From positions 1 through 53,374 of IMG/VR virus record IMGVR_UViG_3300034994_000033: a DNA stretch of 53,374 nucleotides; one strand, given 5' to 3'. The position numbers and the translations under genes are program-made. The notes beneath the pieces were generated by a model that searched no databases, was not told where the DNA came from, and saw only the letters and a program-made list of their open reading frames with translations. Of the stretch, positions 1 through 51,939 are shown piece after piece. Source of the DNA: a virus. Lineage: Duplodnaviria > Caudoviricetes. Every line of letters begins with the position of its first letter. Positions within the stretch are counted from its first letter, which is position 1.

Positions 1-103
1 GTATGAGGGGCATATTTTCCACGAGGAAATGATCAAGAAGGGGTTTCAAGAAACCGCCGTGGACACCTGCCTATTTCTGATAAATAAGCCCCTATGGGCA
101 TAA
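1..103 (+). CDS. 3' end of a second copy of the small NPPY methyltransferase cassette gene (partial, spans contig junction)
   Basis: 1-104 is identical to 3095-3198; TAA at 101-103. Confidence 0.9.
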   Translation, partial: YEGHIFHEEMIKKGFQETAVDTCLFLINKPLWA

Positions 104-148
104 CGGCCAAAGGGTAAGCGGTGCAACCGCTTCACCCGATGGTTAGAT
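98..148 (-). mobile_element. attC: attC site (51 bp)
   Basis: + strand GCATAAC-GGCCAAAG-GGTAAGCGG..CCGCTT(C)ACC-CGATG-GTTAGAT: two core sites around an imperfect hairpin with an extrahelical base in the right arm. Confidence 0.9.
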
Positions 149-166
149 TACGAAAGGAGCGACAGC

Positions 167-538
167 ATGACAGACGAGCAAACATATTTCCGAGCGTTGC
201 AGAAAATTCAGAACGGTTGCTACTGCTACACCCTTGCACAGATAAAGGCAATCGTTGATGACGCATTAAACCCTGTGCCGCAATATGAGGATGTAGAGGT
301 TGTCAGGTTTGAGTGCCTGACTTGTGGATTCATTGAGGTCGAAGACTGCACATCTCCAAACGAGTGTTGCCGGAATGATGCACGAATTACACTGAAAGGC
401 TCATATAGCGTGAGGAAAAAGCCCAAAGAGTTTCGCCGTGAAGAAATCGCATTTGATATGAATTTCATTGAGGCTCTTGTATGTGGCGGTAAACGTATCC
501 CGCTATCGGCTAAATATTACGCAGAGTGGGCAGAGTAA
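167..538 (+). CDS. Cassette gene, hypothetical Cys-rich (CxxC...CC) protein
   Basis: AAGGAG RBS; cassette ends GTTAGATTAC (142-151) and GTAATCTAAC (535-544) are perfect 10-bp complements. Confidence 0.8.
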   Translation: MTDEQTYFRALQKIQNGCYCYTLAQIKAIVDDALNPVPQYEDVEVVRFECLTCGFIEVEDCTSPNECCRNDARITLKGSYSVRKKPKEFRREEIAFDMNFIEALVCGGKRIPLSAKYYAEWAE

Positions 539-600
539 TCTAACGGGTCTGTGGCTGACCCGCCGGGGTTCATCGGGCGGTGTCCGGCCACTGGTTAGCG
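538..600 (-). mobile_element. attC: attC site (63 bp)
   Basis: ATCTAAC...GGCTGACCCGCC..GGCGG(T)GTC(C)GGCC..GTTAGCG; two unpaired bases in the right arm. Confidence 0.9.
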
Positions 601-628
601 ATATTTCAGCAAAATCAAGGAGATAATC

Positions 629-898
629 ATGCAACCTCGTAGACTGTACTGGACAAGCATTGCCACTTTTGACGAGAAAAACGAGCCGGGACACACTGAT
701 TACGTTCGCCGCGAAGTGCGCTCACGGCTGAAAGATTTGATTGCCGACGAATCAATCAAGATTGCCACTCGTGATCGGGATCATGACGGATGCAGAGAGT
801 TTACGGCTTCGCTGTATGTTCTGACTGATACCGAGATGAAAGAGTTTGTTGATTACATAAACCGTCAAGCGTGTAAGGGATTGCCGGTCATTTTGTAG
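629..898 (+). CDS. Cassette gene, hypothetical protein
   Basis: AAGGAG RBS; cassette ends GTTAGCGATA (594-603) and TATCGCTAAC (899-908) are perfect complements. Confidence 0.8.
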   Translation: MQPRRLYWTSIATFDEKNEPGHTDYVRREVRSRLKDLIADESIKIATRDRDHDGCREFTASLYVLTDTEMKEFVDYINRQACKGLPVIL

Positions 899-901
899 TA
901 T

Positions 902-959
902 CGCTAACGGGTAGCCGATGACCGGACGGCTTTTGTTCCGGTCGATGGGCGGGTTATGC
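902..959 (-). mobile_element. attC: attC site (58 bp)
   Basis: CGCTAAC...ATGACCGGA..TCCGGTC(G)AT..GTTATGC; extrahelical G in the right arm. Confidence 0.9.
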
Positions 960-987
960 CCGTCAATTATTCATCATGGAGGAAGTT

Positions 988-1209
988 ATGTCAAAATCAA
1001 AAGCTCCCGCAATACACGTCGGAAATATTATCAACGCGGCAACTCGTAACGAACTCACGGAATATGTGAAAGACATATTTACTGCTGGCAGAGAGACTGA
1101 CCAATCTGGCGCAACAATACGCCACGCGCTCTCAATGTTTTCTGAATGCCAAGAAGTAAAAAATCTCTCAATTTCAAATTGCAACTTCACGAACGGGGTT
1201 AAGGCATGA
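988..1209 (+). CDS. Cassette gene, hypothetical protein (first of two in this cassette)
   Basis: GGAGG RBS before ATG 988 (ORF track starts at 976); ATGA overlap with the next ORF. Confidence 0.7.
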   Translation: MSKSKAPAIHVGNIINAATRNELTEYVKDIFTAGRETDQSGATIRHALSMFSECQEVKNLSISNCNFTNGVKA

Positions 1210-1400
1210 ATACCAATTCAAAAACAACATATATCCTGCTAGATCGGGGGACAGAGGATAAGGAGTTGTTGGGAGACATCAACCGGATATTTTCAGACCT
1301 TGGCGAACCATCCATTAAAAATATTGCAGTACGGTACCCAAAGCTATTGGAGTTCAAGCAATATTTACAAGATGAAGTGGAAATGGAAGCATCCGCATAA
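1206..1400 (+). CDS. Cassette gene, hypothetical protein
   Basis: Translationally coupled to the previous ORF; stop TAA lies in core site GCATAAC. Confidence 0.7.
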   Translation: MNTNSKTTYILLDRGTEDKELLGDINRIFSDLGEPSIKNIAVRYPKLLEFKQYLQDEVEMEASA

Positions 1401-1452
1401 CGGCTTGAGCTGACCAGACGGCTTTTCGGTCTGGTCGAGCGTTTGGTTATAA
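1395..1452 (-). mobile_element. attC: attC site (58 bp)
   Basis: GCATAAC-GGCTTGA-GCTGACCAGAC..GTCTGGTC(G)AGC-GTTTG-GTTATAA; textbook attC bottom-strand layout on the + strand. Confidence 0.95.
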
Positions 1453-1487
1453 TGCGTCTGGCTGGATAGCGAAAAGGAGGGTTAACC

Positions 1488-1673
1488 GTGGAATGCCCTA
1501 ATTGTTTCCCTGATACCACCAATGTTGGATGCCCTCTCTGTCGGGGAAATTACTTCTTTGATTCCTGTTGTGACGAAATACAAGATGACGATGACGGTTA
1601 CGAAGATGACGATGACGGTTACGACCTGAACGATTACGAAGAAGATTGCAGGGTCAACAGGGGGCAAGGATGA
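1488..1673 (+). CDS. Cassette gene, small Cys-rich protein with acidic Asp/Tyr repeat tail
   Basis: AAGGAGG RBS, GTG start; CPNC/CPLC motifs; 21-bp tandem repeat at 1582-1624 encodes DDDDGY twice. Confidence 0.7.
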   Translation: MECPNCFPDTTNVGCPLCRGNYFFDSCCDEIQDDDDGYEDDDDGYDLNDYEEDCRVNRGQG

Positions 1674-1951
1674 ACTTAAAGGAACAGGCGGAGCAATTTG
1701 CAGGGTCTTACACCCACCGACCAGCTGAAGCTTGTGTTCTGGTAAGGGAACTTCTGAATGAGATATTAAATCTTGAAACGGACTTGGCAAGCAAGAAAGC
1801 CGTTATCGCTGAACAGGCGGGCGTCCGCAAAAAGACCGCGATTGAGGCAATCGGTATTGTTCAAGAGTGGCGCAACAGCAACAAGCTGATTGACAAGCTG
1901 GTGCATACATTCGGTGTTTACGATGACATTTACGGCAAGAAGGAAGCATAA
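1670..1951 (+). CDS. Cassette gene, hypothetical helical protein
   Basis: ATGA overlap with the previous ORF; in frame with track ORF 1646..1951. Confidence 0.7.
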   Translation: MNLKEQAEQFAGSYTHRPAEACVLVRELLNEILNLETDLASKKAVIAEQAGVRKKTAIEAIGIVQEWRNSNKLIDKLVHTFGVYDDIYGKKEA

Positions 1952-1952
1952 A

Positions 1953-2615
1953 GTGGAAAAAGTTATTATCGGAAATGCAACTCTGTTCAAGGGAAACTGC
2001 ATGGCTGGACTGATTGACGCGGCTGATGGACAATTCAGCCTTGCAATAGTTGACCCGCCGTATGGTTTGGGAAAAAAGATCACGGCAGGCGGCACATGGA
2101 GCGCAAAACATGCCAAGGCAAACCCTCAAGGCTTTGAATGGGATGTTGCACCGACTTTCGAGTATTTCCACCGGCTAAAAAGAGTGACTACAAATCAAAT
2201 AATTTGGGGCGCAAATTACTTCGCGATGCCGCCGTGTAGAGGCTTCATCGTCTGGGACAAGGGAGTTTTATTCGGATCAGGGCAAACGTTCGCAGAGGGT
2301 GAATACGCTTGGACGAGTTTTGACCGTAATGCCAAAATCACAAGGGTTATGCCGCTTATGGGTTTTCTTTGCAGAGGCGTGGAAGAACGCATACACCCGA
2401 CACAAAAGCCGGTTTCACTGTATCGGTGGTTGTTGGCAAACTATGCAATAGCAGGAGATACGATACTTGACACGCACATGGGCAGCGGAAGCAGCGTGAT
2501 TGCCTGTCTTGACGCTGGGCTGGCCATCACCGCCTACGAAGCGAATCAAGAATATTTCGATTTGGCTTGTGAAAGAATAGAGAGATCACAGCAACAAATG
2601 AAATTAGCATTATAA
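1953..2615 (+). CDS. Cassette gene, N6-adenine/N4-cytosine DNA methyltransferase (beta class)
   Basis: DPPY catalytic motif, HPTQKP, LDTHMGSGS SAM motif; GTG start just after the previous stop. Cassette ends GTTATAATGC (1446-1455) and GCATTATAAC (2607-2616) are complementary. Confidence 0.9.
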   Translation: MEKVIIGNATLFKGNCMAGLIDAADGQFSLAIVDPPYGLGKKITAGGTWSAKHAKANPQGFEWDVAPTFEYFHRLKRVTTNQIIWGANYFAMPPCRGFIVWDKGVLFGSGQTFAEGEYAWTSFDRNAKITRVMPLMGFLCRGVEERIHPTQKPVSLYRWLLANYAIAGDTILDTHMGSGSSVIACLDAGLAITAYEANQEYFDLACERIERSQQQMKLAL

Positions 2616-2667
2616 CGGAGGAGATAAGCAGTGAGCGAAGCGAATCTGATTGATCGTATTGTTATGC
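2610..2667 (-). mobile_element. attC: attC site (58 bp), identical from TAAC onward to the site at 53245-53302
   Basis: TTATAAC-GGAGGA-GATAAGCAG..GCGAAGC..CTGATT(G)ATC-GTATT-GTTATGC. Confidence 0.9.
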
Positions 2668-3197
2668 CGGTTGTCGATCTGAATATGCTCCGGGCATACA
2701 AGAAAAAATTCAACTTCTTCGAGACCCCGGAAGTGTTAGCCGACCAAATGGCTGGCTTTTTGGATGGACTGGGCCGCAATGCCCGAATATTGGAGCCATC
2801 CGCTGGAATGGGGGCACTGATACGGGCAATTGAAAGGGCGATGCTGTTTCTGCCGCAGATTGATTACTGCGAGATACAAGAAGAATTTGCAGCCATTCTT
2901 TCCACGTATAACCGCGTCGGTTCTGATTTTATGCAATACAAGCCGGGGCCGGTATATGACGCCGTGATTATAAATCCGCCGTACAAAAACAAGCTGGCCG
3001 AACTGCACGTAGACCATGCCTGGAATTGCATAAAGCCGGGCGGCTGGATCGTGGCACTTGTAGGAAAAACGGCGGGAAGCTACATAGGCTCAGAGTATGA
3101 GGGGCATATTTTCCACGAGGAAATGATCAAGAAGGGGTTTCAAGAAACCGCCGTGGACACCTGCCTATTTCTGATAAATAAGCCCCTATGGGCATAA
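2631..3197 (+). CDS. Cassette gene, small SAM-dependent amino-methyltransferase (gamma-type order), probably acting on DNA
   Basis: FFETP, ILEPSAGMGAL (motif I), INPPY (motif IV); stop TAA in core site GCATAAC. Confidence 0.85.
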   Translation: MSEANLIDRIVMPVVDLNMLRAYKKKFNFFETPEVLADQMAGFLDGLGRNARILEPSAGMGALIRAIERAMLFLPQIDYCEIQEEFAAILSTYNRVGSDFMQYKPGPVYDAVIINPPYKNKLAELHVDHAWNCIKPGGWIVALVGKTAGSYIGSEYEGHIFHEEMIKKGFQETAVDTCLFLINKPLWA

Positions 3198-3229
3198 CTT
3201 CTGATTATGCAGCCTTCTGGCGGGATAAC
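3192..3229 (-). mobile_element. attI: attI-like primary recombination site
   Basis: Minus strand GCATAAT-CAGAA-GTTATGC (L box, 5-bp spacer, GTTRRRY-type R box); extra GTTATCC direct repeat at 3223-3229; sits between the array and the intI start and has no attC stem. Confidence 0.8.
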
Positions 3230-3256
3230 GGGAAAAACTTTTGAAAGGAGAAAACC

Positions 3257-4420
3257 ATGCAACCTACTAAAATCAGAACACAATACACCTTTGCTCAACG
3301 TGATAATGAAATCCTGAAAAGCCCCCGTGTTGCTGGCTGGCTCTCTGATCTCCAAAAAGAATTTGCCGTCCACCACACCGACCCAAAAACCCAGAAATCC
3401 TACCGCCGAGTGATCATCCGCTTTATCCTCTGGAAAATCAAAGGCCAGTGCATGGATGATTTTGATACCGCCATGCGTAATTATCTGACCATGCGGGCGG
3501 ATAAAGATCAAATTGCCGCCAGTACCCAGAATGTTGATTTCAACGCCCTGCTGTTTTTCTGCCGGCACGTCCTGAAAAAAGAGCTCGGTAAGATCGATGC
3601 CGCCCGGGCCAAGCGGTCACAACACCTCTACGTGATCCTGTCGCGGGAAGAAGTCCGATCGATCATCGCGGCATCCACCGACGTCTACAAACTCATCAAC
3701 TCCCTGATGTACGGCTGCGGCCTCCGGGTAGAAGTCGATTGCCTGGAAATCAGGGTGAAAGATGTTGATCTTGCCCGTGGCAAGCTGGATATCCGTGATA
3801 GTAAGCACGGCAGCGCCCGTGAATTGGATATTCCTCTGGCGTGTGTCGATTTCCTTCGACTCCAGATAGAAGCCTGCAAGCGCGTTCATGATGCCGATCT
3901 GGCCGCCGGCTTCGGCGAGGTGGATCTGCCTGGTGCTTATGGCCGAAAAAATCCCGGCGCCTCCAAGGATTTTGGCTGGCAATATCTGTTTTTTGCTCAG
4001 TCGAGATGGGTCAACAAGGACGGCAGACAAGGCCGGCCACATATCCACGTTTCAGCGGTTCAGGACGCGTTCAAGATGGTCCGTAAATCACTCAGTATCT
4101 ACAAACCAGCCACTCCACACTGTATGCGTCATTCTTATGCAACACACATGTTGGAGGATGGTGTGGATATTCGTAAACTACAAAAGTTACTTGGTCACCG
4201 GAAAGTCGAGACAACGGAAGTCTACACACAGTTTACTCAGGGTGCGGGCATCCGCAGCCCGCTGGACCGTATTCTTGGTATTGCAGGAGATCTGTTACCG
4301 GTAAACGTTGGCGCGGATGTTCGGCGGTGGCTCGTGTCTTTTGCCTCAAAACTAAACATCACACAAGAAGAAGCCGCCGCACAGGTTCTGTCAATGGCTG
4401 CTCATGGGGGCATCCTGTGA
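3257..4420 (+). CDS. intI: Integron integrase (IntI family tyrosine recombinase) with C-terminal extension
   Basis: AASTQNVDFNALLFF, RAKRSQHLYVILSREEV, MYGCGLR, IntI-specific insertion DLAAGFGEVDLPGAYGRKNPGASKDFGWQYLF, HCMRHSYATH, LLGH..TTEVY, GIRSPLD. Catalytic R-K-H-R-H-Y residues appear intact. Confidence 0.95.
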   Translation: MQPTKIRTQYTFAQRDNEILKSPRVAGWLSDLQKEFAVHHTDPKTQKSYRRVIIRFILWKIKGQCMDDFDTAMRNYLTMRADKDQIAASTQNVDFNALLFFCRHVLKKELGKIDAARAKRSQHLYVILSREEVRSIIAASTDVYKLINSLMYGCGLRVEVDCLEIRVKDVDLARGKLDIRDSKHGSARELDIPLACVDFLRLQIEACKRVHDADLAAGFGEVDLPGAYGRKNPGASKDFGWQYLFFAQSRWVNKDGRQGRPHIHVSAVQDAFKMVRKSLSIYKPATPHCMRHSYATHMLEDGVDIRKLQKLLGHRKVETTEVYTQFTQGAGIRSPLDRILGIAGDLLPVNVGADVRRWLVSFASKLNITQEEAAAQVLSMAAHGGIL

Positions 4421-4689
4421 ATCAAGACCACCTTTATCAATTTCCCGCTACCCGTTTTGTCTCAAATTCTCTCTGGTGTCAATGGTGGCATTTATTATCT
4501 GAAGTTCTTGAAATCGGCTGGGAGTTGCTGGTCGGCAATCTGCAGCGGGCCGCAAATGAGTCGTGGGATGCCAGTCAGAGCAACGAAACGTTGCGGAGGA
4601 TCCTGTCCGGCCAGGGGGCGGATATTGAAATGGCACGGGAACAGGTTGTCAAGGGTTGTCAAGAGCGCGGGTATTATCAGGCGTTATAG
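4417..4689 (+). CDS. Small helical protein, possibly MazG-like NTP pyrophosphohydrolase
   Basis: GTGA overlap with the intI stop; SEVLE...NESWD acidic pattern and ERGYY C-terminus. Confidence 0.45.
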   Translation: MNQDHLYQFPATRFVSNSLWCQWWHLLSEVLEIGWELLVGNLQRAANESWDASQSNETLRRILSGQGADIEMAREQVVKGCQERGYYQAL

Positions 4690-6224: not shown

Positions 6225-6263
6225 GTGTTCATTATCATAGTGAATTTTTTTGTTGCGTATTCG

Positions 6264-6289
6264 TTTATGTTGCGGTAGCCCTGAAATAT
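6264..6289 (+). promoter_or_regulatory. Late-promoter motif copy 1
   Basis: TTTATGTTGCGGTA, also at 24364 and 39455, each at a late module start. Confidence 0.65.
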
Positions 6290-6944
6290 GGGAACTGCTA
6301 ACTCGACAAATTTTGAACAAACTGCCGCTACCGGCCAGATGGTGCTTCATGATTTTGAGGCAATCATCGGTTATGAGGCGGCTGTTCTTAAAAAACCGCG
6401 CAATGAGATGTTCTGTGTGGCTTTTGTCGAGAATGGTGGCCATGCTGGAAAGGCATACCAGGCGGCAATTAATCCAAAAACTACTGATAGCAATGCCCGC
6501 AAACGCGCTCATGAACTGTTGAAAAACAAGGACATATCAGGACGTATCGCTGAATTGTCTGCTGTTATCCGCAATAGAACAATTAATGACCTGATAGACT
6601 TTCGTATCAAGGGCATGAAGTTTGATCCCGCCAATTATTACGACTCCAGTTCTGGTATCAGAAGGCAATTGCATATCAGCGACGTTAAGGATGGCCACCG
6701 AATTGGTATAGGTCTGGAGTCTCGCATCGTTGATGGCGGTGTTGTGTATGTACCGGTATTCCCCTCCCCTGAAAAATCTGCTGATGCACTGCAGAAGATG
6801 ATGGGACTCGATAAGTCGCTGGTGGAACTGGCTGGGAAGAACGGTGGGCCAATACAGACTGAAAGTGTGGTTGATGATATGGGCAGGCTGCAAAGTCTCA
6901 AGGAGAAAGCGCAGGCGTTAAAGAATGCCGGTATTATCTCCTGA
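6288..6944 (+). CDS. terS: Terminase small subunit
   Basis: AYQAA..ARKRAHELLKNKDI helix-turn-helix, ELAGKNGGPI motif; directly upstream of TerL. Confidence 0.85.
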   Translation: MGTANSTNFEQTAATGQMVLHDFEAIIGYEAAVLKKPRNEMFCVAFVENGGHAGKAYQAAINPKTTDSNARKRAHELLKNKDISGRIAELSAVIRNRTINDLIDFRIKGMKFDPANYYDSSSGIRRQLHISDVKDGHRIGIGLESRIVDGGVVYVPVFPSPEKSADALQKMMGLDKSLVELAGKNGGPIQTESVVDDMGRLQSLKEKAQALKNAGIIS

Positions 6945-19149: not shown

Positions 19150-22100
19150 ATGTCGGTATCACCAAGCGCAACAGTAAAGATACTCACCAATGTTGGCGAT
19201 CCGCTCATGTCGTCTGACGGGACTCCCCTTGCCGGAGCCACGTTGACATTTCAGTTGGTTGATTTTCAGCGCAAAAAAGTGGTCTCGGTTTTTGATGTGG
19301 TTAGCGGGGAGTTGGTGTCTTCACTGCCGATAACGGCAATCACCAATGCGGCCGGAGAGATCAAAAACGCCGCAGGCACCGCTGACATTGCCTTGTGGCC
19401 CAACAGCCGGGGGGATGTTCCCACCTGTTACAAAGTAACTTGCAGCGACCCCGCTATCCAAAAAATATACATCATCGTTGATGAAGCTGTCGATACCACA
19501 TTGTTATCTGCAAAGCTGGCCTACGAAATCGGAGAAGGCGCAATCAGTCTGCCGGATATGCCTACCTCCCCGTTGCTTGACATCGCAATAGCCGCAACGG
19601 CAGGGGACAGGGTGCAGACCGGACTTGATCGGGTGCAAACCGCCCTCGACAGAGTAGCGACCGGTCAGGACAAAACCGCAACTGCGGCAGATCGGGTGCA
19701 AACCGCCCTCGACAGAGTAGCGACCGGTCAGGACAAAACCGCAACTGCGGCAGATCGGGTGCAAACCGCCCTCGACAGAACAAGCACCACCGAATCAGCT
19801 TCAGCTTCCGCTGCCAGTGCCGCCCTGGTGCAGCCACAACTCACAGCCTTTGGTGACAGGGTTGACGCTGTTGAAGTCGGGCAATCTGCTGCTGTCATCG
19901 GCTATGCTACGCAAGCTGCACTGTATGCCGACCTTGTCCCTGATGATAAATCGGTTGCCTATGTCACCAACGACGCAACCTCCGCCAACAACGGCACTTA
20001 TCGCAAAAGCGGTGCTACCGGCATTGGCGCTTGGGTACAAAGCAGCTTCGACCGGGTAGCGCTTGTAGAAGGCCGTGCCGCCACCCTTGAAAGCGGTGTT
20101 TCAGCCTTGGCGACGATAGGTCAGGACGTTTCAATCACCGTTAACATGACCGCCAAAACCATCACCGGCGGCGGGGGTCCCGTTTTTTACAAGGGAGGCT
20201 ACACGGTCATCCCATTGGCACAAAATGTCGCCTTCGCCTATACAAATCCCCCGGGATATGCAATGTTTTTGTACGCCGACAAAATCACCGGCGTGCTGGG
20301 TATAGCCGCTGATGCCGCACGTCCCCCAGTCGGTTCGGTCTTACTGGGTTTTATTTACGCGCAAAAAATCTACGCAAACGACCCTACCGGACAGATAAGG
20401 GTCATCCCCACCAGCTACGGAGTTGTAGGCGGTTTTGGTGAGCGGTGGGGCACCTATACCGGCAACATTGGCGGCCTCACTATCAATCAGCAGTCCAAGA
20501 CGATCACCACCGATTCCACGGGCGGAGCGCTGGTGCACAAGGGCGGGCTGGTAACCATCCCAGGCGGCCAGAACGTGTCCTACATTTTTGCCACCTCTAC
20601 CAATACGGGGTATTTGTTCGCTCACCCGGTCACCGGGGATCTTAATATGACCGACCTGGGGGCGCTGCCGCCGGTCGGGTTCCCGGTTATTGGCATGGTC
20701 AAAGGAGAACAGTTCTACTCCATTTCCCCTAGCCGTTTTATTAAATATATCAACGCAGGTGGGACGCTCCTGAGAGTGGACGGCCTGTCCCAGTGGCGGG
20801 ATCTGTTTGGCATGGTTGGGTCTGACGTGGATCTAACAATAAATCTGGCGGCAAAGACCGTCACGACATCTGCCGGTGGGGGGTTAATCCTCTCACAGGA
20901 AGGGTATGTTTCGCTGGCCGGTTCGCAGAACGTCAGTTTCACCCATACCAGCGCCAACTATCTGCTTTACGTTTACGCCGACAAAACTACTGGCATACTG
21001 GCCGCAATTCAGGCACCGGGTACTCCGCCGGTAAACTCGGTTTTGATTGCCATGAGCTACAGTCAAAAATTATATGCCAATGACCCTTACGGTAAAATAA
21101 CACTGCGTAACGCAGCCGGGGTTGCCCTCCCGTTTGGTCCCCCTGATGCACTTGGCATCATCAGCAAGGACGTTGGCGTCACGATCAATCTGGCGACAAA
21201 ACTGGTTACCACGGTCAGTACCACTAATGCGGCAGTATTCTTTAAAGACGGCTACGTCTATGTCCCCTCCGCACAGAGTGTAAGTTTTGCACAGACGTTG
21301 CCTACATATCTGCTCTATGTGTATATCGACAAAACCACGGGTGTTGTCGCCGCCGTCCAGTTGACCCCAACGTTCCCAGCCAACTCGGTATGTATCGCCA
21401 TTATTTACGGGCAGCAAATCTACGCCAATGATCCATATAAAAGAATATCTCTGTATGACGGTAGCGGGGACCTAGTTACATCGTTGGCGGGAGGACTGGC
21501 CCCCTTCAACGAATTAGCACACCGGCTGATCCTGCCTGATGCCATTTATTTTCTCCCCAACACGCCACTGGCGCTATTCAAGGCGCCTTGCTTCTCAGCC
21601 TATCAGTTCAGTCTGATGAGTCAGTTACGGCTCTGGTTGGACACCAAAGGATCAACAATTTCATCCCGCTTCCAATCGGTTGATGAAGTGTTACGACTCG
21701 ACCCCGCACAACTCGGCAGTACTTTCGAACTCGGGTTCAGACACGAATCCCAGCCGGACGTGCGCTACATCAAGCCGATTGTGAAGAATGTATCTGCCGA
21801 GGGGGCGCTGACTGGCCGAAACCTCAAGATGCTGGTGATTGGTGACTCGCTAACCGAAGGTCTGATGGCGGATGCCATCCAGGCCAATCTAAACGTCCAG
21901 GGCGCTACAGTGACTCCAGTAGGAACATATTTTGCTGCATCAACAAACTACCTACGGGGGGAAGGTCGTGGATTTTGGAACTACCGTTCTTTTATCGGCA
22001 AAGACAATTATAGTACCGGGATCGGAGCCCACACCCGCAGCAGCGGTGGTAAAACCGATACCACTAAATTCGAAAATCCGTTCCTCAAGCTGGCTGACGC

Positions 22101-24351: not shown

Positions 24352-24363
24352 ATTGAATATTCA

Positions 24364-24394
24364 TTTATGTTGCGGTATGCGTTCAATATCATAG
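24364..24394 (+). promoter_or_regulatory. Late-promoter motif copy 2
   Basis: TTTATGTTGCGGTATGCGTTCAATATCATAG before the ejection module. Confidence 0.65.
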
Positions 24395-24415
24395 TGGACA
24401 GGTGGATACACCGCA

Positions 24416-28187: not shown

Positions 28188-28205
28188 TTGTCAAAGGGGA
28201 GTCTC

Positions 28206-31200
28206 GTGGCTGACTCGATAGTTTTATCAAAAGATGATGTCGGTGAAGATATTCTACAACCCAAATCTATCGTGTTGTCCATGGATGATGTCGGTACGGA
28301 TGTATTGCCTAAAGTGCGGAACCCCCGGGTTTTATCTAGTTCCGATCTTGGTCGAAACATTTTAGAACCAGAGCCAGTAGACTCTTCCAAAATAAAAATG
28401 TTCACCAATGACCGGGCCCGCACCGGCGGTATGCAGTCGGTCCTTGGTATTGCTTCGCAGTCGGACCGGAATGCGCGCGCTTTGGCCGATGATGTTTCCA
28501 ATGCCGTTGCCACTGCTCCGGCAACGGTTGTCTCTGGGGCCGTCCGGGGCGCCGGATCTTTGCAGGTGGCCGTGGCGCAGGCAAAAGCTCCGGGCTTTCT
28601 GCCGGGCATGGGGTACGTGGATAACTCCGGCAAGACCATTCCCGTTGATGATGGCGGCGATATATTCACCCCCCCGGATCGTTCTTACTATACAAAGCGC
28701 TATACCGGCATGGAGCGCAGCGGCTTTGACAAGATGGATCAGGCTGATGTCGTAATGGCGCAGATCAAGCAGGATGCGCCTGTTAGCAGCCCGATCGTGG
28801 ATAAATACCTGCGAGAAGGATTCAGTCAGGCTGGTAACATGCTCCCTACCCTGCCGCTTGCAGCCATCCCGGTTATCGGGCCTGAACTGTCCGTGCAGAT
28901 GATGGCCCGCGGCGCCGGTGCCGATGCGATCAAGAAAGGCCGTGAGATCGGTCTGACTGATGACGAGATAGATGATTACGTCAGCAAACAAGTCGGGCCG
29001 GAATATGTCGGTGAGAGGCTGTCAATAGGCCCGATGCTGGCAATGCTGAACAACAAGGTCCCTTTCTTTAAAGCACTCGGGACACACCAACTGGCGGAAA
29101 TCAGCAGCGAGATTGGGACGTCTCATTTTCAGCTTGCCGCTGATAAGGCGTATGAAAAGCCCGGCCTGTCCAGGGAAGAACGCAACCGTATTTATGATTC
29201 ATGGATAAACATGGACGCGCAGCGCAATGACCCCAAGGCAATGACGGAATGGGCCAACAACATGAAGGATACCGCTATCACCACGCTCGGCATGACACAC
29301 GTCATGGGCGCGGCCGGTGGAGCGCACCGTGTGGCGACAACAATTAGCGCTCCTGCTGAAACAGATGCAATAACCCGCGGAATGGATTTCACCGGCGCCG
29401 ATGAAGCGGCCCTTATTCGCTCAATGCCGCCCGAAAGAGCTGCGGCGTATCTGAAAAAGAAACAGCAAGCCGCCTCGGCACAAATACACGGTAACGAACC
29501 CCTCTCCTCCCCCCCCCCTGCAACTTCATACCAGAACGAAGGGTATGACGATATCGAAGATATGCCGGCGCCGAAGGGCCCATTGGAAAATGCGGCAAGC
29601 CAGGCGGTTACAACAACAGGACCGGATACGGCACCTGATAACATACCCCCGTTTACTCCTCCCGAAACTCCTGTCACCACAGAGTCCGTGCCGCCTATCG
29701 ATGTTTCGGGCGGTACGGCTCCCCCGTCTGCCGTCAGGGAAATAACCGATGCGGACCAGACCGATTTTGAGAATGCGGTGTTGTGGGAAATCAAGCTGCG
29801 CGAAAGCGGCCGATCGGCTGTACCGGATATTGAGGGCGAATCGGCAAGAGACCACGCCTGGCGTTTATTGGAAACGTATCGCAAGGCTATTACGCCGCTG
29901 GTCGCCGGGGATACGTCGGGCGCGGTGGAAGAAACACAGCACCCGGCCCCGGCGGCGCTGGCGGCCGGAGATACCAATGGCTTTTTGACTTCGCTCGGTT
30001 ATCCGAAAATCAGGAACGCCGACCACTTCGAAACGGGAGGGATCGGGGCAATAAAGAATAATGAATACGAATCGCCGCCAATGCCGGGCGACGTCGCTGA
30101 ATCGTTGATGGGTCAAGCCACTGCTGCCGGGCTTTCCGCAACGGCTGCACCGTACATGATGACTCGCAAAAAGCTGGACGGTTCTTTTGAAACCATCCCG
30201 GCGGGGTCCGGGCGGGTAACAGTAAAGATTTCACAGGCGCAGGAGAAACCCGATGGCGCTACAGATACAGTGCCCGCATTGCCAGGGGCGTCCGAAGTGG
30301 AACGGCCGGGAGTGGGAGTGCCCGAAGTGCAAGGCAAGGATACCGGATCAGAAAATAATTTACCTCAACCCGGAGGAATGAATAATGATCTGTCCAGCGT
30401 GCGGCAAGAAACAGGCGTCCCGCAAGAAGTGCCACCAGTGCGGGTCAGGGAAAATGCATCGATTGATGAAGCTGCGCATGCTGCCGCGACATCTCCACGG
30501 AATGACGTTCCGGAGCCGACGACCGCCCAGATCGAGGCCGGCAATTATAAAAAGGGACATGTCAACATCCATGGTCTTGATATCTCCATAGAGAACCCCG
30601 CCGGGTCATTGCGCAAGGGTGCCGATGAGAACGGCAAGTCCTGGCAGACCGAGATGGCGCACCATTACGGCTATATCAAGGGGACGATCGGCAAGGACAA
30701 GGATCATATCGACGTATTTGTCGGGCCGGATCAACAGAGCGGCAAGATATTCGTGGTTGACCAGATCGACCCGAAAACCGGCGAACTGGACGAGCACAAG
30801 GTGATGATGGGTTTTGGTTCTCTTCCGGCGGCCCGGGCCGGATATCTGGCAAATTATGATAAGACCGGCGCGCAGAGAATCGGCGCTATCACGGAAAGTT
30901 CCGTCGATGATTTCAAGCAGTGGCTTAAAGAGGGCGACACCAGGAAAGCCTTTGCCCCGCAAGTTACCAAGGTTACCACGGTAACCTCCGGGATTTCCAC
31001 CTCAGTCCGTCGTCAACTCGATACCTCAAAAGACAGCCTCCAGCTGGCCGTCGCCAAACTGGGGGGGATCAATCGTGCCGAGCTCGATCAGCAGACCGGT
31101 ACCGGCAAGGACCTGGCGCATACCCTGAACAGCATGGCCTCGAAAGAGGGGGGAACATTCCTGCATACCATCAAGAGTACCGGTCTGCCGCTGGACACGA

Positions 31201-34200
31201 TGCGCGAGGCGCTGGTGGAGAACGGCTATCTCAAGCCGGCCGACGATATCAACACCCTGCTGGACAAGCTGGACGGCGCTTCCCGCGGCGAGGTGCATCG
31301 CTCCACGCATGCGGCCGATACCGGGGATGCGGCGTACAGCGAGGCGGAAACGCGCTATGCCGAGATGATCGGCGCGATGACCAACGAAGAGTATGAGGAA
31401 TATTCCCGCAACCAGTGGCTCGATGAACAGGCGGAAGAGCTGGCCGCCGCCGCTGATATCATCGACGAATATCTGTCCGGATTTGACGAAGAGAAGATGA
31501 CCGCTGCCGACTGGCAGGAGGTTGAAAACGATCTTAAGGAGGCGCTGGATGCCGAAATCAGCAGCGGAAACATTGAAGAGAATAAAGAACCGGGCCAAGA
31601 AGATGCCGCCGGAGAAGCGCAAGGCGTTCATGTCGGCGGTGAAGGTGATACTGCGGACAAAAGTCAGGCAGGTACAGGAAAAAATGTAGAGCAGCAGAAC
31701 AAACTTTTCGCCACTCCCTCGACTTTCGGCACCAAGCCACAACCCAAGACCACAAACCGCGACGTTTCTACGTCCGGCTTATTGGATGGTTTCACCAAGG
31801 ATGATTCGGTGCAGCCGGGTCTGCCGGGCGGCACAACCGAAACAAAATCATTAACCGATAAGGTTAACGAAACCGAAAGCGCCCAGACGGATAATAGCGG
31901 GCCGGCGACCTCTTCAGAAAAAACAAAACTGGAAGATTTCGGCGAGAAGATCGGCGGGGCCCGTAAGGATTACGCGGCCAAGCTGGATCATGCCAAAACA
32001 CTTGATATTGCCACAGAGCCGTTTGCAAAGACGTGGCCGGAACCCGACTATCTCAAGATGCTGGCAGACGGTTTCGATGAGCAACATGTTTCTCTGGTTC
32101 GCGCCCTACGCGATGAAATCCCCGACAAGCCCCGCAAGTCATGGAAACTGCAACCATGGGTCAAGTTGGTTGAATCCCTGCGGGATCATGCTGAGTTAGC
32201 ATTGCAGGGCAAAAGTCCTGTTTTGTACAAGGTATTGAAAGAGACCGAATTCGTTAATTCCTCCGCACAAGATATCGCCGGCCGTGCCGAACTTTACCAC
32301 GCGGTAGGTCACGATGTTTCCCTGCGGGGCGTTACCCTCAAAAAGAACTTTTGGAATCTGTACCACGGCGAGAAGGATGTTACCAAGTGGCAGGTTGAAG
32401 GTAAACAGAAAGCAACCGCCTTCGGTAATATGCCGCGCGAATTGGGGATAGGTAACACCAAGGCCGAAGCGATAGATGACTTTAAATCAAAGATTTCTAC
32501 GCTGGCTCCGGGAGAAAAGGGTAAGAAAACAACCGAATTCATCATTTATCAGTACCGGGCAAAAGATAAACCCGGCCATTACATCGGCAAGAAGATCGGC
32601 CAGGATTATCTCGACCTGCAGAAGTTCGATGATGCCAAAGCTGCCCGGGAGTATCTGAACAGCCATCGGACAGAACTTGAAGCACAGCTTGCAAGTATGA
32701 AGAATGTTCCTAATGAACGCCGGGACGTCAATAACCCCCGTTCTGGTGAAGACTACCGAGGCGGCAAAGATGTGACGCCGGAGATGTTCACCAACTCCTT
32801 TGGGTTCAGAGGGGTCGAGTTCGGCAATTATGTAGAAGGTTCAAAGCGGCAGAACGATTTGAACAACGCCTTCGATGCCTTGAATGACCTGGCCGGCTTG
32901 CTGAATATACCGACTCAGGCTATATCCCTAAATGGTGAACTCGGGCTGGCATTCGGTGCAAGGGGCCATGGCGGCAAACACGCCGCTGCTGCGCACTATG
33001 AATCTGACAAAATCGTCATCAATCTGACCAAGAACCAGGGCGCCGGATCTTTGGCGCATGAATGGTTTCATGCGTTCGATAGTTATCTTTCCCGCACGCG
33101 CGGCTATAAAGGCGACTTCATTACCGACAAGACCGTCAAGTATGGTCCGGCGGATGGAACCCGGCAGGAGTTGATAGACGCTTTTATTGATCTCAGAAAA
33201 AACTTGAACGCCACCAACATGAAAACCCGTTCGCGGGAACTGGATAAAACCCGCAACAAGGATTACTGGTCAACCGGGATCGAGATGCATGCCCGGGCGT
33301 TTGAAAACTATGTAATCGACAAGCTGACCGACAGCAATACCAGCAATGATTATCTGGCCAACATCAACAGCGTATCCGAGTATGCCGATGCCATGCTTCA
33401 CGGTTTTATGACCGGCAAGACGGTTAACGATCTGTACCCGTACCTGCTGGATTCCGAGAAGGCGGCGGTCGTCAATTCTTTCGATAAACTGTTTGCAACG
33501 CTACAGACCAAACAGACCGACAAGGGCGTTGCCCTCTACTCCAACCCGCTGTTCGATCCCGCCCTGGTTGTATCCTCCCTCTCCGGGCTTGCCAAGAATC
33601 TGAAAGAGGATATTCCGAAGTTGGTCAAGTTGGGACAAGTCGTTATCCGTGAAGGCGCCGGGAAATATCAGCAGTTCCTGGCCGGGATGAAGCAATATCT
33701 CGGCGACAAATGGGACACATTCAAATTGCAGATGCTGAAGATTTATCACCAGGCGAAAGCGGCATACGCCAAGAGCTCCAACCCGCTGTTCGATCCCGCC
33801 CTGGTTGTATCCTCCCTCTCCGGGCTTGCCAAGAATCTGAAAGAGGATATTCCGAAATTGGTCAAGTTGGGACAAGTCGTTATCCGTGAAGGCGCCGGGA
33901 AATATCAGCAGTTCCTGGCCGGGATGAAGCAATATCTCGGCGACAAATGGGATGCCTTTAAATTGCAGATGTTGAAGGTTTATCACCAGGCGAAAGCGGC
34001 ATACGCCAAGAGCAGCACCGCCGAGAAAGAGGCGAACTTTGCCCTTGCACAGCCTGATAATAATGATATAGTTACAGAGAAAGGAGCCGCCCATGAATCA
34101 GACTCAGGAGAGTTCTATGTCCCCCGCCGAATATCAGAAACACGTGACGGAAATCGGGCGGAAAGAAATCGCGCTGATGCCGAAGCTGTTGCCAGGGCAG

Positions 34201-37200
34201 TTCAAGGCACAGTGCGAACGACTGAAGGCGCAGAATATCCCGAACCGGGATTAAACGAACTCAAAGGCGCCCAGAAGAAATTCTATGCGCGCCTCAAAGC
34301 TCTCGAAGAAACCGCCCTGTTGCAGCACATGCAGGAAACCGGGGAATTCCCCAGCGCCGGCTTTGTCGCCGCATGGAAACGTGAAGGTGAACAGGCCGGG
34401 ACAGAACACAAAGTAGCCGTTGCCCCGGATGGCCGCACGGTTCGCAAGTTCGGCGATGCCGCCGTCAACCACACCTGGACCGATTACCTCCAGCGTATCG
34501 CCCTCCATAACTCTTTATTCCCTCTCACTGAATATGAATACAAAGGCTTGTCCACGATAGCCGGCCACCTCCATGCCGTGGTCGATCAGGTGGCCATCGC
34601 CGGAGAAAACATCGTTCAGGCCAAGCAAGCCGATATCGATGCGGCCATGAAGGAACTCGGCTTTGAGCCGTTTATCCGCAGCCAGTATGCCGGCAAACCA
34701 ACCGAAGTATCCCCGATGGCCCGCCTGTGGGTACGCCGCTCCGACAATAAAGCCGTATGGGATATCCGCCCTGCCAATGTCCTGCAGAACTCCGATACCA
34801 AAACCCTCTATTTCATCGACCCGGTTGTCGAGCAGTTGCCGGACGGTTACGACATCGGCAAGCTGACGCCATTGGAGATCGGTGAAGACGGCGCGGTTGT
34901 CGGCTCCCGGTTTCAGTTCATCGATGGTGAAGTGGTGCCACGGGATGATGCTCAGTTCAAGTTGACCGGCTCCCCTGCGGTCTCCGGCGTCAAGGCCGTC
35001 GAGGCGCAAGCATGGGTCTCAACCCTCCCGATCGCCAAGCGGGTAAACGTCGTGCAATCGATCGACGACCTCCCCGCCGCAGCCCGTTCCGAAATCACCA
35101 AGGCCCAGGTCAACCCCGCCCGCGTGCAGGCCATGGAGCTGCAGGGCACCATTCACGTCATCGCCGATAACGTCCCGGATCTGCGCCGGGTCAAGGCGTT
35201 GGTCATCGGTCACGAGCTGGCCCACGCCGGGCAGACGGACAAGGTTGTCGATATCGCGGTGGACTGGTTCACCCGCAACAAGGATACCAAAACAGAGCAG
35301 GCGCTGGCAGCGCAGGCGATCCTGGAGAAAGTCGCGGCCGGGTACGGTTACAACCTGGATAATGTAAAGCAGTTCCGGCGTGCGGTACAGGAAGCGACGG
35401 CGGCGCTGGCCGAACAGGTGGCGGACGGCACGCTGAAGCCAATCGGGCTGATGCATCGGTTGATGCTGTACCTCAAGCACTGGCTGCGCCAGAACGGCCT
35501 TATTTCGCATGTCTCGGACAGCGAGCTGTATCAAGCCGTGGCCGAGATGCTGCGGATTGGGGAAAAGCGGTTGTCGGTGGGTAAGGGTGGTGATGAGGCG
35601 CAGTTTGCTGCTGCATGGCACGGCGGGCCGCATGACTTCAGCACGTTCGACTCTTCAAAAATAGGCACCGGTGAGGGTAACCAGGCTTATGGTTATGGGT
35701 TGTATTTTGCCGGCAACAAAGAAGTGGCGGAATTTTATAAAGATATGTTGTCGAAGAACCAGCGGGCATTTGATCCTGAATTGGTTGATGCAAAAGCAGG
35801 ACTTCGTGATGCCCTGGCGGAAGTCGACAACCTCGGATTTGATACTTTCGGTGAAGTGCTAAAGACACTCCGGCAGTACCCTCAAAACTGGTTTGATATG
35901 TATGAAGTAACGCCGGAAGAGGCGGCGACTATCAGCAAGTTTCTGGCGGCCTACGAGAAGCGAATAAAAGAAACGCAAGGCAAACTTTACCAGGTTGAAC
36001 TCGCCCCTTCCGAGGATGAATACCTATTGTGGGACAAGCCGCTATCGGAGCAGAGCGAAACGGTGAAAACTGCTCTGGCGGAGTATGGCGATTATCCCGG
36101 AACGCTGACAGGGAAACAGATATATAAGCAAGAAACTGGCGGGAACGCTGGTAATTCCAACTCTCCAATAGTTTCACAAGAACTCCACTCCCTCGGCATC
36201 CGTGGCATCAAATACCTAGACGGCACCAGCCGCGGCAAGGGCGAAGGCAATTATAACTACGTCATCTTTAATTCCGCAGACGTGGAGATCAAGGCCAAGT
36301 TCGCGCTGTCTGACGAGATAAAGTCCAACATCGAACGTGTCTCTGAATCAACCTTGCTGGGTAATCTGAAAGGCATCGTTGAACCCGGCACACTTGCCCG
36401 CTTCGCAAAAAATATCCCGGATGCTGAAGATGTAAAAGATACTCTCGCCAGCATTCTGGCAAACGATACTCTCTCTGGCTTCGCTCAGGATCATTTACAA
36501 ACGCCGCTAATGGTTACCGAGCAGCACCCTGATTTCCTGCCGGTGTATGAAACCGCCAAAGAGCGCGATGAAAACAAGATGAATTACGTTGTCAGGATGC
36601 TGGGCGGGCTTTTCGATAAAGAAGGGAAACCAGCACTATGGGATAAAGTCAAGGACACACTTTTTAACTGGGATACCGGCAAAGAGACCGCGTACGGGCA
36701 GCTGTTGCGCGAAACCAAGCTGACCAGCGAAGAGCGGCGCATGTACGATGAATTGGTGTTTGAAGCCGATATAATGGGGGCCGAATACAGTTCATTGGAA
36801 TATGCGAACCGGAATCCCCGCATAAAGAAAATGGACGTTACGCCTCGGGTTTTTGATTTCTATCAGAAATCCATGGCGCTCCAGGAGTCCGCCCGCAAGG
36901 TGCATATTGCCATAATAATCGAGCTTATGCACAAGGCCGGCGCTTCGCTGGAAAAAATAGCGGCTACTCTGGCCCGTAACCATGCCGAAACCGAAGATGT
37001 TTCGGAAGAAAGTCTCAAAAACGAACTTATGGAACTGATGGCGGAGATGGAGAAGGAAGGCAAGTCAATCGATACCATTGCCCGCCACGTCGCCGATTAT
37101 CGCGGCATGGTGTTAAAGCGCAAGGGGCGCGTGCATCGGAACCACGGCGAAGGGAACCGTACTGTAGATGTCTTTCACCACATTACCTCGCTTGATTTTG

Positions 37201-39440: not shown

Positions 39441-39454
39441 CGCTTGAATTATTA

Positions 39455-39485
39455 TTTATGTTGCGGTAGCTGTTCAATATCATAA
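39455..39485 (+). promoter_or_regulatory. Late-promoter motif copy 3
   Basis: TTTATGTTGCGGTAGCTGTTCAATATCATAA before the lysis module. Confidence 0.65.
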
Positions 39486-39527
39486 TGAATACATAAAACT
39501 AAATAATCAACCCCTGGGGGAGCTGCG

Positions 39528-42232: not shown

Positions 42233-43385
42233 TCATGTGGTTTTATCCTCTTTTTTTATTCCGGAAATTGCAGAGGCAATTTTTACCGCTTCACTTTGTA
42301 AATATTCCGCCATCAACTTTGTGTAGTCTTGAGTTGTTCTGATATCTTCGTGACCGGCCAGTTCACGGACAGCCGCTACCGGTACTCCGGATATGATAGC
42401 GCTGGTGACAAAGCTGTGCCGCATCAGATGGTTGTATACTCGCTTGTCAATCCCAGCCGCTATCGCTGCTGATTTTAAACTCTTCTTGATATTGGTGTAC
42501 GGTCGTTTGGTTTTCGGGTTTACAAACAGGTAGTCACCAGGTTTTTTTCCTTCAATTGTTTCTGCCAGGATCCGGCGTAGGTCATCGGTTACTATTGGTA
42601 CGACTCTTGTTTTATCTCCCTTGCCTGTTATGATAAGCGCGTTGTTGTCAATATCGATATTTTGTTTGCGTAATGTCAGAGCCTCGGTTTTACGCAGTCC
42701 GTTTTGCACCATCAACATTGTTAGTGTCCGCTGAAATCCTTCCTTCTGGTTCTCTATTAACCTGGGTATTTCTCCCAGCGACAAAACCACTTTGGCTTTT
42801 GCTTTCTGCTGGCTTTTTGGAAAGCCCTTGGGGAAGTCCCCTACCGTGTATTTTTCTTCATCCTTGCACCAGCGCAGGAACGTTCTGAAATAGTTCAGTT
42901 CAATCTGGATGGTGCGCTTACAAATGGTTCTCGTTTCTACCAGACAACGAGCGGCATATTCTTCATCGGTTTCGGCGTTCTTGTCGTTTGCCCTATCCTT
43001 CCGGTGCTGCCGTTTTTTGGGGATGATCTTTGTTGCCAGACGCGCGGCTTTATATGGTTCGTAGTCGCTGTTGCAGGTATACGATGTATTTATTACCCAG
43101 ATAAGGAATGAGTTTTTTGAAGGCCAACATACACAGATCGTGTGTTTTGGGGTACATGGTGGCATGCCAGGTGAAGAATTGTTTCAGGAGGTCAATCACC
43201 TTAAGCCGGCCATTGTTTTCAGGGGCAATCCCCCGAAGCTCCCGCTCGTGTGCAAGGGCTCGGGCCTCGGTGCCCTGGAAAGGGATGTATTCCGTTGGTA
43301 AGTAGTTCTTGGAGCCTTTGCGGCCGTGGCTGATGATGATGTACCACCAGCCGTGGCCGCGTGTCGGGTGGGGTTTAATTGACAC
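42233..43385 (-). pseudogene. int: Phage tyrosine integrase split by a frameshift near 43065-43075
   Basis: N-terminal ORF 43050..43385 and catalytic ORF 42233..43165 (GLRKTE, GKGDKTR, HLMRHSF, AGHEDIRTTQDY) overlap in different frames. Confidence 0.8.
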
Positions 43386-44654: not shown

Positions 44655-45059
44655 CTATGCTGATTTCTTCTCTTGGAAGCTTAATACCTTCCCTTCGCTT
44701 GAATCTAATGAGGACGGAGATTCTTTACTAAATCCTTGCGCCACAAGTAGCAGCGTATTTCGTTGCTCGTCATCAATTGAACCCCACAGCTTTACAATTT
44801 GTGTCAAACGATCATCTAACTGTTTCGGCTGGTAGCATTCCTCTGATTCCGCGACCCCTACCCCGTTTAAAAACCATTCAAATGTTTTCCCGGTCTCCTG
44901 CACCAGTTGGTCAATATACTGGTATGGGACTGAGTTTCTTGTTTTCCACATGGATATTGTTGAAGCGGCAACCCCTCCCAAGTGTTCACCAAGATCCTTA
45001 TCGCCTGATGCGGCGACAGCCCCCCTCATTCTCAAAACTATTTCACTAACATTGCGCAT
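44655..45059 (-). CDS. cI: CI-like repressor (HTH, no peptidase domain)
   Basis: DKDLGEHLGGVAASTISMWKTRNSVP..FEWFLNG; divergent from the early operon. Confidence 0.85.
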   Translation of the reverse strand: MRNVSEIVLRMRGAVAASGDKDLGEHLGGVAASTISMWKTRNSVPYQYIDQLVQETGKTFEWFLNGVGVAESEECYQPKQLDDRLTQIVKLWGSIDDEQRNTLLLVAQGFSKESPSSLDSSEGKVLSFQEKKSA

Positions 45060-50610: not shown

Positions 50611-50726
50611 TTGGATCAATATTGTGTCGTGACCATCAAGCCTGCGGAACGCCACCGTGGAAGGAAGCGTAAACCGAGGACGACACTTTTTAATTGAGGC
50701 CGCATAAACAAACGGAGGCGACGATA

Positions 50727-51494: not shown

Positions 51495-51539
51495 CGGCTA
51501 GAGGATGACGGGCTTGCCCCGTCCAGCCGATTGTTATCC
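51489..51539 (-). mobile_element. attC: attC site (51 bp), distal end of the array
   Basis: CGATAAC-GGCTAGAG-GATGACGGG..CCCGTC(C)AGC-CGATT-GTTATCC. Confidence 0.85.
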
Positions 51540-51573
51540 TTCGGGGTGGCAATCGAGACAAAGGAGCGGCAAA

Positions 51574-51939
51574 ATGTTAAACGTGAATGATTCCAGTATG
51601 GCGGCAAATGCAATCTGTCACGCTGCCGAAATGACCCGCGAAACGATCAGAATGGCAGTCTACGAGTACGAACGTCCGTCAACGGTACACAAACCCCGTC
51701 TTTTCATTGATGGCGATCATTGGTGTGCTCTCTTCGGTGAGAATTTACAGGACGGTGTTGCAGGATTCGGGGTGTCTCCTTCGGCGGCAATGAACGATTT
51801 TGACAACAACTGGTGTAGGCCGCTACCGCCCAAAATGAGCGGTATTCCCGGCATGACTCAAAAGGATTTCGAAACCGTCGTGGCAGAAGAACAACGGATA
51901 ATTGACCGGGAAAATTTGGAGAAGCTGAAAGAAGGATAA
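51574..51939 (+). CDS. Cassette gene, hypothetical protein with HicB-like segment
   Basis: AAGGAG RBS; DGDHWCALFG..GVAGFGVSPSAAM; cassette ends GTTATCCTTC and GAAGGATAAC are perfect 10-bp complements. Confidence 0.75.
   Translation: MLNVNDSSMAANAICHAAEMTRETIRMAVYEYERPSTVHKPRLFIDGDHWCALFGENLQDGVAGFGVSPSAAMNDFDNNWCRPLPPKMSGIPGMTQKDFETVVAEEQRIIDRENLEKLKEG

Follow-up and report, generated by a model that had tools for sequence, protein, structure and literature searches.

The 53,374-base IMG/VR virus record IMGVR_UViG_3300034994_000033, analysed here at its full length (the window), is classed as linear and as 99% complete by CheckV. It is a temperate tailed phage from sediment, and one region of it is a real integron, made up of an integron integrase (IntI), its attachment site attI and cassettes with attC sites. 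One of the cassettes, named R here, encodes a small TaqI-like N6-adenine DNA methyltransferase and occupies two positions, one next to attI and the other spanning the two ends of the record. The window probably represents, in linear form, a phage genome of ~53.7 kb that is circular (or circularly permuted) and carries its own integron, a reading that is held jointly with, and takes its grading from, the proposal that IntI duplicated R in cis.

Cassette R at two positions

Along the + strand, the order is a ParB-like gene of the phage backbone, ten cassettes, attI and intI. With cassettes delimited on that strand from one AA|C to the next, the ten are c10 to c7 (51495-53251), R, c5 to c2 (104-2616) and R again (2617-3198), and each is laid out with an attC site at its 5' end followed by its gene or genes. 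By direct sequence comparison, positions 53248-53374 are identical to 2613-2739 (127/127) and positions 1-104 are identical to 3095-3198 (104/104), as had been claimed in the original prediction, with 0 further bases shared beyond the outer limit of either identity. Chance cannot account for two exact matches of this length (127 and 104 nt). The repeat as seen (2613-3198, 586 bp) has TAAC at its left edge and AAC at its right edge, and its neighbours differ both upstream (GTCGCCC vs GCATTA) and downstream (GGCCAAAG vs TTCTGATT); these edges and differing neighbours had also been described correctly, and so had the downstream neighbours as an attC site in one case and attI in the other, which is confirmed by the folding of the attC site and by the conservation of attI among relatives. 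A BLAST comparison of 2613-3198 with the record returned exactly three places, namely the whole copy and the two pieces at the contig ends, and a repeat scan of the whole window found no further long dispersed repeat, only two intragenic tandem repeats and a 44-nt motif.

Copy A of R (2617-3198, + strand, 582 bp) is the one next to attI and was delimited from the sequence, from BLAST and from a contig of a sequencing run that spans exactly 2613-3198. Copy B, recognized by identity, is sixth from attI, with its first 127 nt at the 3' end of the contig (53248-53374, + strand) and its last 104 nt at the 5' end (1-104, + strand), so that both contig ends lie inside a sequence that occurs whole within the contig. 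The absence of 355 bp (2740-3094) at this junction, also predicted, was borne out: these bases have no counterpart at the contig ends because the contig terminates there. That both ends lie in R and the 355 bp are missing is probably because the assembler could not pass the second 586-bp repeat; its path would have run from c5 through c2 into R and attI, onward around the genome to c7, and would have halted on re-entering R. Short reads cannot close a circular map in which an exact 586-bp repeat occurs twice, and if such a map broke in R the full genome length would be 53,374 + 355 = 53,729 bp.

Public sequencing runs were consulted as Logan k=31 contigs, for which depth is a single figure per contig. 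All four R junctions are present in the likely source run of the record (X1). The stretch between the two R copies (c5, c4, c3 and c2; 105-2616, + strand) lies in one contig that covers 75-2642 at a depth of 11.5, starting 30 nt within the tail of R and ending the same distance into its head, and no other branch is present at either end; R itself is a contig of exactly 2613-3198 (586 bp, depth 31.7) with no bubble, and the R copies are therefore identical at k=31; the last 25 nt of c7 lead into the head of R in a 55-nt contig (depth 12.3); and a 16.5-kb contig runs from 30 nt inside the R tail through attI and intI (depth 18.9). In a run from another study (X2, depth 2-6, no differing letters), the R tail (77-99 plus seven ambiguous letters) is joined to the R head (2612-2888), which is the junction of a tandem R-R or of an R circle, made at the same cut point and in an arrangement that is absent from the window. 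Identical pieces exist in a third study (X3, share 0.17); at depths of 2-6, the parts of 1-4500 that X2 and X3 leave uncovered are uninformative. The 55-nt contig that joins c7 to R in X1 begins exactly at 53223, which requires a branch there; this fits either a variant base at 53222 or a junction of the c7 end to the c7 start, c7 being the only cassette that begins with CGC.

The original prediction had offered three readings of the repeat, namely a duplication, a population with mixed cassette orders, and an excised multi-cassette circle that broke the assembly, and duplication on one molecule fits these data best. In X1, c5-c2 has R only on both sides, which speaks against a population of genomes that each have one R but differ in cassette order. 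A related explanation is an assembly artefact in which two strains with one R each, at different places, were merged, so that no two-copy molecule exists; the record is metagenomic and ends within the repeat, and its 127-nt overlap at the 3' end has the length that we take to be the largest k of a common (JGI) metaSPAdes recipe. Such strains would need c7-to-c5 or c2-to-attI junctions, whereas X1 shows only R before position 105, after position 2612 and before attI (low-depth branches were possibly pruned), and we consider a merger of this kind very improbable.

The circle is compatible with the same graph. A genome with a single R (c7-R-attI), accompanied by a separate ~3.1-kb circle of c5-c2 and one R that the assembler threaded in, would give an identical k=31 graph and identical depths (31.7 vs 11.5 + 18.9), and c5-c2 would again touch only R on either side. 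However, no phage replication gene was found on the excision circle, which would have to be maintained at 61% of genome depth, with a similar ratio in the second sample (~2.4 vs ~4), far above the level of a by-product; in addition, the original assembler joined c5-c2 through R to attI, and the CheckV completeness of 99% was obtained with c5-c2 included. The circle is accordingly very unlikely, and duplication of R on one molecule remains the preferred reading.

Cassettes, attI and the integron integrase

Eight canonical attC hairpins of 51-69 nt, of the form xxxTAAC-stem-loop-stem-GTTAxxx, lie between the ParB-like gene and intI, and all eight fold better than shuffled sequences (z from -1.55 to -4.72). 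On the attI-proximal side of copy B, all on the + strand and all with boxes, they are the attC sites of c5 (cassette 104-544; attC 98-148, minimum free energy (MFE) -12.1, z -2.77), c4 (cassette 544-908; attC 538-600, MFE -14.2, z -2.09), c3 (cassette 908-1401; attC 902-959, MFE -11.7, z -1.55) and c2 (cassette 1401-2616; attC 1395-1452, MFE -10.8, z -2.92), the last of which holds three open reading frames (ORFs), including a PF01555 DNA methylase (1890-2615). On the distal side, likewise on the + strand, they are the attC sites of c10 (51489-51539, MFE -10.3, z -2.45, boxes), which is the most distal cassette and whose left box is the end of the ParB-like gene, c9 (51934-51986, MFE -10.7, z -2.58, boxes), c8 (52252-52320, MFE -15.7, z -2.68, cognate box 6/7) and c7 (52772-52834, MFE -18.7, z -4.72, boxes). 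A GC-rich hairpin at the end of c7, just before copy B of R, lies outside any attC site (53219-53247, + strand, MFE -8.6, z -1.44). Eight of nine cassettes end in 7 nt that are exactly complementary, in reverse, to the GTTAxxx box that follows the hairpin upstream of the cassette's own genes, and in the ninth six of the seven match; the cognate boxes match, and therefore the units are cassettes, although this test alone is blind to polarity because a crossover at G|TT predicts the same pairs. The boxes conform to RYYYAAC/GTTRRRY and the bulges are mostly on one arm, except at the attC site of R itself, which has the boxes without a stable stem.

A hairpin scan of the window gave 19 clusters, seven of them within the array and 12 elsewhere that resemble chance or terminator hairpins; stricter thresholds retained only two sites. 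MAFFT alignments of 12 and of seven attC sites placed the stems out of register, and RNAalifold found 0 pairs in them. Among relatives, an exact cognate box with a hairpin was found in the attI-adjacent cassette at 12 of 13 testable loci, a count that uses exact-match first steps only; when one mismatch was allowed, walking from box to box leftwards from 53251 gave 17 "cassettes", of which only the first four are real, before running into the backbone, and it also skipped sites in a related Geobacter sp. contig (L008) and jumped the weak attC site of R. Cassette sets differ among the relatives that share attI, and methylases of the PF01555 type occur in related arrays too (two in L011, one in L008, one in L022). 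The attC site of c3 is 95% identical over 61 nt (905-964) to positions 2276-2336 of another phage contig (L015), which is otherwise unrelated and has different flanking cassette genes. In c8, ~23 nt of the left arm of the attC site (52256-52280) recur in inverted form close to the 3' end of the cassette (52731-52755).

The ORF of R (2631-3197, + strand) has an NPPY motif and was assigned from family matches; it encodes a protein of 188 residues, or of 177 residues if translation starts at the ATG inside the right box, perhaps at 2664. The protein matches PHROG families of DNA methyltransferases (best 1.3e-28) and weakly M.TaqI (4e-05), and has no match in Pfam or NCBIfam. In an alignment of 20 sequences, many homologues begin at the Met that corresponds to 2664. 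This ATG sits in the right box of the attC site of R, read as GTT-ATG-C (2661-2667), and longer homologues keep "VM" there. There are 38 relatives of similar size in a large protein collection and R-like genes at 32 metagenome loci; a pattern method found no relative of the R protein in IMG/VR, and the last 28 nt of R were found in no other viral or metagenome contig, in scans that may exclude the window's own record. Kinship between the R protein and a polyvalent protein of 3750 residues encoded by the same phage was considered, and the two proved to be unrelated when compared. The attC site of R (2610-2667, + strand) has its left box at 2610-2616 and its right box, GTTATGC, at 2661-2667, and the cognate box matches in 7/7 positions (GTTATGC vs GCATAAC at 3192-3198).

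The integron integrase gene (3257-4420, + strand) encodes 387 aa and was assigned from TIGR02249 (266.6 bits, cut-off 265; match to positions 2-315 of a model of 315) and from an alignment to VchIntIA (2A3V; 3.1e-44, residues 39-339) that is almost gap-free and spans the IntI-specific segment (LPxAxxRKxPxAxxxxxWQYLF) between the recombinase patches. In an alignment of 22 IntI sequences, R157, K183, H288, R291, H314 and Y323 are invariant columns, which we take to be the catalytic residues. A C-terminal extension of ~48 residues (340-387) is conserved in this IntI clade and absent from 2A3V. Among the nearest relatives, the first 79 proteins listed have at least 48% identity and lengths of 385-389 residues, except for one partial sequence of 319 residues; many of them are encoded on contigs of 17-59 kb, relatives are encoded on at least 18 IMG/VR contigs, and one relative (P0002) has 89% identity. 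The closest genome match is a contig of a Geobacter sp. metagenome-assembled genome (L008, 58 kb, 66% identity). When flanks were compared, the relatives shared with the window mainly intI and the small gene that follows it, and one contig (L005) additionally matches two short stretches elsewhere in the phage.

Several side observations concern these relatives. The small ORF directly after intI (4424-4677, + strand) is conserved with ~70% identity in L006 and L008. The latter contig also has three further attC-like sites on the same strand, downstream of intI and up to the contig end (10831-10879, 12997-13062, 13563-13619), which look like a second array. Two contigs (L012 and L020) stop on the upstream side of attI, 55 and 101 nt short of it, and two others (L024 and L027) begin inside intI; the array thus tends to be the place where these phages are split in assembly, and the integron would explain breaks of such phage contigs at or near attI.

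The attI site (3199-3256, + strand) was recognized from conservation among relatives. The R box that it forms with the cassette end is followed by a 4-nt spacer and by an inverted L box (GATTATGC) that mirrors it; PMC12614218 describes for attI a pair of inverted boxes that are separated by 4-5 bp. At 17 loci, conserved sequence starts right after AAC, 55-60 nt before the start of intI, and the variable cassette ends stop there; the form AAC-NNN-TG-NN-T occurs at 11 of these loci, a diverged form at four, and two have no clear junction.

That the crossover lies at AA|C on the + strand follows from four lines of evidence. The conserved part of attI starts immediately after AAC, as just described. 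Of 28 sites, 22 have their unpaired stem bases on the arm opposite AAC, four have them on the AAC arm and two have them equally on both, and a bottom-strand attC with its unpaired bases placed this way is described in PMC5027507. The + strand has the more stable fold in 20 of 23 attC sites (mean -1.16 kcal/mol), and G:T pairs on the + strand number 24 vs 6, with a G skew of +0.14; the corresponding figures for bottom strands in PMC5027507 are close, at 1.28 kcal/mol and 1.24 vs 0.39 G:T pairs per site. Finally, AA|C is where both ends of the R repeat lie and where R meets R in X2. Therefore, the + strand is the bottom strand of attC, and the cassette genes, which lie on it, accordingly point to attI and intI. 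An observation that speaks against this assignment is an A/T skew of -0.20 on the + strand of the attC sites, opposite to the purine enrichment reported for bottom strands. By longest ORF, the genes read towards attI and intI in 26 of 30 cassettes of the window and its relatives. The classical arrangement around the Pc promoter is not found, because the cassette ORFs are on the strand of intI and directed to attI; a Pc promoter in intI or attI cannot express the cassettes here, and their expression must come from putative phage promoters upstream.

Origin of the second copy

Two identical copies of R are present, each bounded at the crossover point and one of them in the first position of the array. 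The coincidence of the repeat edges with AA|C, the copy that abuts attI, and the family of IntI support an integrase as the agent, and we judge that R was probably duplicated on one molecule by IntI. The original prediction held that every reading implies an active integrase; an integron with a full-length IntI and a repeat bounded at AA|C were borne out, and the activity of the enzyme is deduced from sequence.

Assuming that a single cassette moved, R would have been excised as a circle from position 6 by recombination between attC(c5) and attC(R); resolution by replication would have left the original R in one daughter; and the circle, whose boxes pair 7/7, would have been reinserted at attI by recombination between attI and attC(R). 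Excision of cassettes from double-stranded DNA is reported to be replicative, so that a copy can be kept (PMC12614218). This route, excision of R alone followed by reinsertion at attI, is put forward tentatively, at slightly less than an even chance. Two other integrase routes would lead to the same product: the R circle may have entered at the attC site of c5, or a circle of five cassettes (R and c2-c5) may have entered at attI.

Duplication on one molecule could also have come about without the action of an integrase on R, either by homologous recombination in c2-c5 between co-infecting variants that differ in the array position of R or by another kind of duplication with ends placed on TAAC by microhomology. 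Phage genomes recombine readily, the population looks heterogeneous (depths of 11.5 vs 18.9), the attC site of R is poorly structured, and 0 of 19 related loci have a cassette duplicate, so that such events are not routine. However, the repeat ends exactly on AA|C and, at one end, on attI; variants with R at different positions presuppose moves made by an integrase; and the R-to-R junction of X2 was made at the same point. An origin of this kind is unlikely, and duplication by IntI is retained.

Several observations nevertheless weigh against duplication of R by IntI. The 44-nt interior of the attC site of R forms no stem (MFE -2.0 kcal/mol, z +1.32); in two sets of shuffles (z +1.32 and +1.19), 189 and 178 of 200 shuffled sequences fold at least as well, and efficient excision of R alone is therefore not obvious. 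The three R-like metagenome genes closest to R (51-60% identity) are without flanking TAAC...GTTA boxes, and the family of R is therefore not generally cassette-borne. None of the 19 related loci has a duplicated cassette. The junctions in X1 are not independent of the record, since this run is probably its source sample and only the assembler differs; no read or contig spans both R copies, whose location on the same molecule is deduced from the graph; and the depth of R equals the sum of its flanks under every model, so that this equality does not discriminate between them. The depth of c5-c2 is 61% of that of the first 16.5 kb after attI (11.5 vs 18.9), and part of the population may lack c5-c2 together with one R, or coverage may be uneven. 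Lastly, the 5' end of the contig holds 104 nt of R rather than 127, which misfits a simple picture of overlap by k.

Relation to known integrons and to the phage backbone

Integrons are known mainly as bacterial gene-capture devices. The integron of the window resembles class 1 mobile integrons and the sedentary chromosomal integron of Vibrio cholerae in the subfamily of its IntI, in an attI site beside the 5' end of intI and in cassettes bounded by AAC, and it resembles classical integrons in attC hairpins with complementary R boxes and bulges on one arm; cassettes of integrons are known to be reshuffled through replicative excision (PMC12614218). It is unlike classical integrons, in which Pc reads outward, in that its genes are on the attC bottom strand and directed towards attI and intI, an orientation opposite to the rule held for bacterial integrons; according to PMC5027507, promoter-facing cassettes had never been observed in mobile or chromosomal integrons. 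It also differs from them in its IntI of 387 residues with a C-terminal extension of ~48 residues and in the location of the platform in a phage genome.

According to earlier reports, integrons are rare in phages and for the most part consist of parts of host arrays. In the survey of Qi et al. (2023, PMC9892861), the supplementary tables of which may list more cases, three complete integrons and one In0 element were found in 10,705 phage genomes: these were pieces of Vibrio host arrays, class 1 integrons on a P1 phage, and a cryptic Shewanella prophage with an IntI that shares 95.3% identity with a host IntI; five methylases were predicted in phage cassettes, two of them in the cluster of attC sites lacking an integron integrase (CALIN) of Polaribacter phage P12002L. 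The window is like these phage integrons and CALINs in having integron parts in a phage genome and DNA methyltransferases among the cassette genes. It is unlike them in that its IntI clade occurs on IMG/VR contigs, at least 18 in number, that have an attI in common, that its array is co-oriented with the phage genes, and that there is direct evidence of rearrangement.

Another arrangement is also comparable. In the inverted integrase group of integrons, intI itself is turned and the cassettes lie downstream of intI. The array described here is like that group (Treponema, Geobacter and others), which is named in PMC3575428, in that intI and the cassette genes have the same direction and that the closest genome match is a contig of a Geobacter sp. 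metagenome-assembled genome (66%), and it is unlike the group, as judged by that description, in that the cassettes are upstream of intI and attI is at the 5' end of intI. A search of the available literature found no description of an IntI clade linked to phages, nor of arrays in which the genes face intI.

The duplication in itself is a known kind of integron event; what is new is its setting, apparently in a phage lineage, with mirror-image cassettes and signs of continuing shuffling in nature. That a temperate phage lineage owns such a mirror-image integron, with a distinct clade of 387-residue IntI proteins, a conserved attI, cassette genes on the bottom strand and ongoing reshuffling in sediments, is a proposal for which we see an even balance of probability. 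Under this proposal, phage transcription towards intI would read the array instead of Pc, and the array would hold small accessory genes as an exchangeable stock; the recurrence of DNA methylases in it suggests a role against host restriction. With the recombining strand as the non-template strand, the movement of cassettes could be linked to transcription or replication of the phage. The duplication of R in one sample and its head-to-tail joining in another point to recent shuffling by the phage's own integrase. If this is confirmed, phages would have a site-specific means of acquiring, losing and duplicating small genes (anti-restriction methylases, for example) and of changing their order, and the array would offer a natural setting in which to test how strand choice and expression are determined in integrons.

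The backbone of the record includes the ParB-like gene next to the array (50694-51494, + strand, HTH_ParB 7.2e-08), whose stop codon falls in the distal boundary box of the cassette array, and genes for the small terminase (6288-6944), the large terminase, the portal and the major head protein. A phage-type tyrosine integrase that is separate from IntI (42233-43165, - strand) and a CI-like repressor (44655-45059, - strand) are encoded, and the phage therefore has a lysogeny module apart from the integron integrase. The polyvalent protein of 3750 residues mentioned above (28188-39440, + strand) has InPase, LPD5, LPD1 and kinase domains and a weak match to ADP-ribosyltransferase, and its gene contains a 237-nt tandem repeat (33539-34012) of two copies that are 97% identical. 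A 63-nt tandem repeat (19627-19815), of two exact copies and one of 63% identity, lies in an ORF of 1184 residues, and the 16.5-kb contig of X1 ends at this repeat. A motif of 44 nt occurs three times (6253-6296, 24353-24396 and 39444-39487) with 68-100% identity; each occurrence precedes a gene block, one of them right before the small terminase, and the motif may be a promoter or a regulator site.

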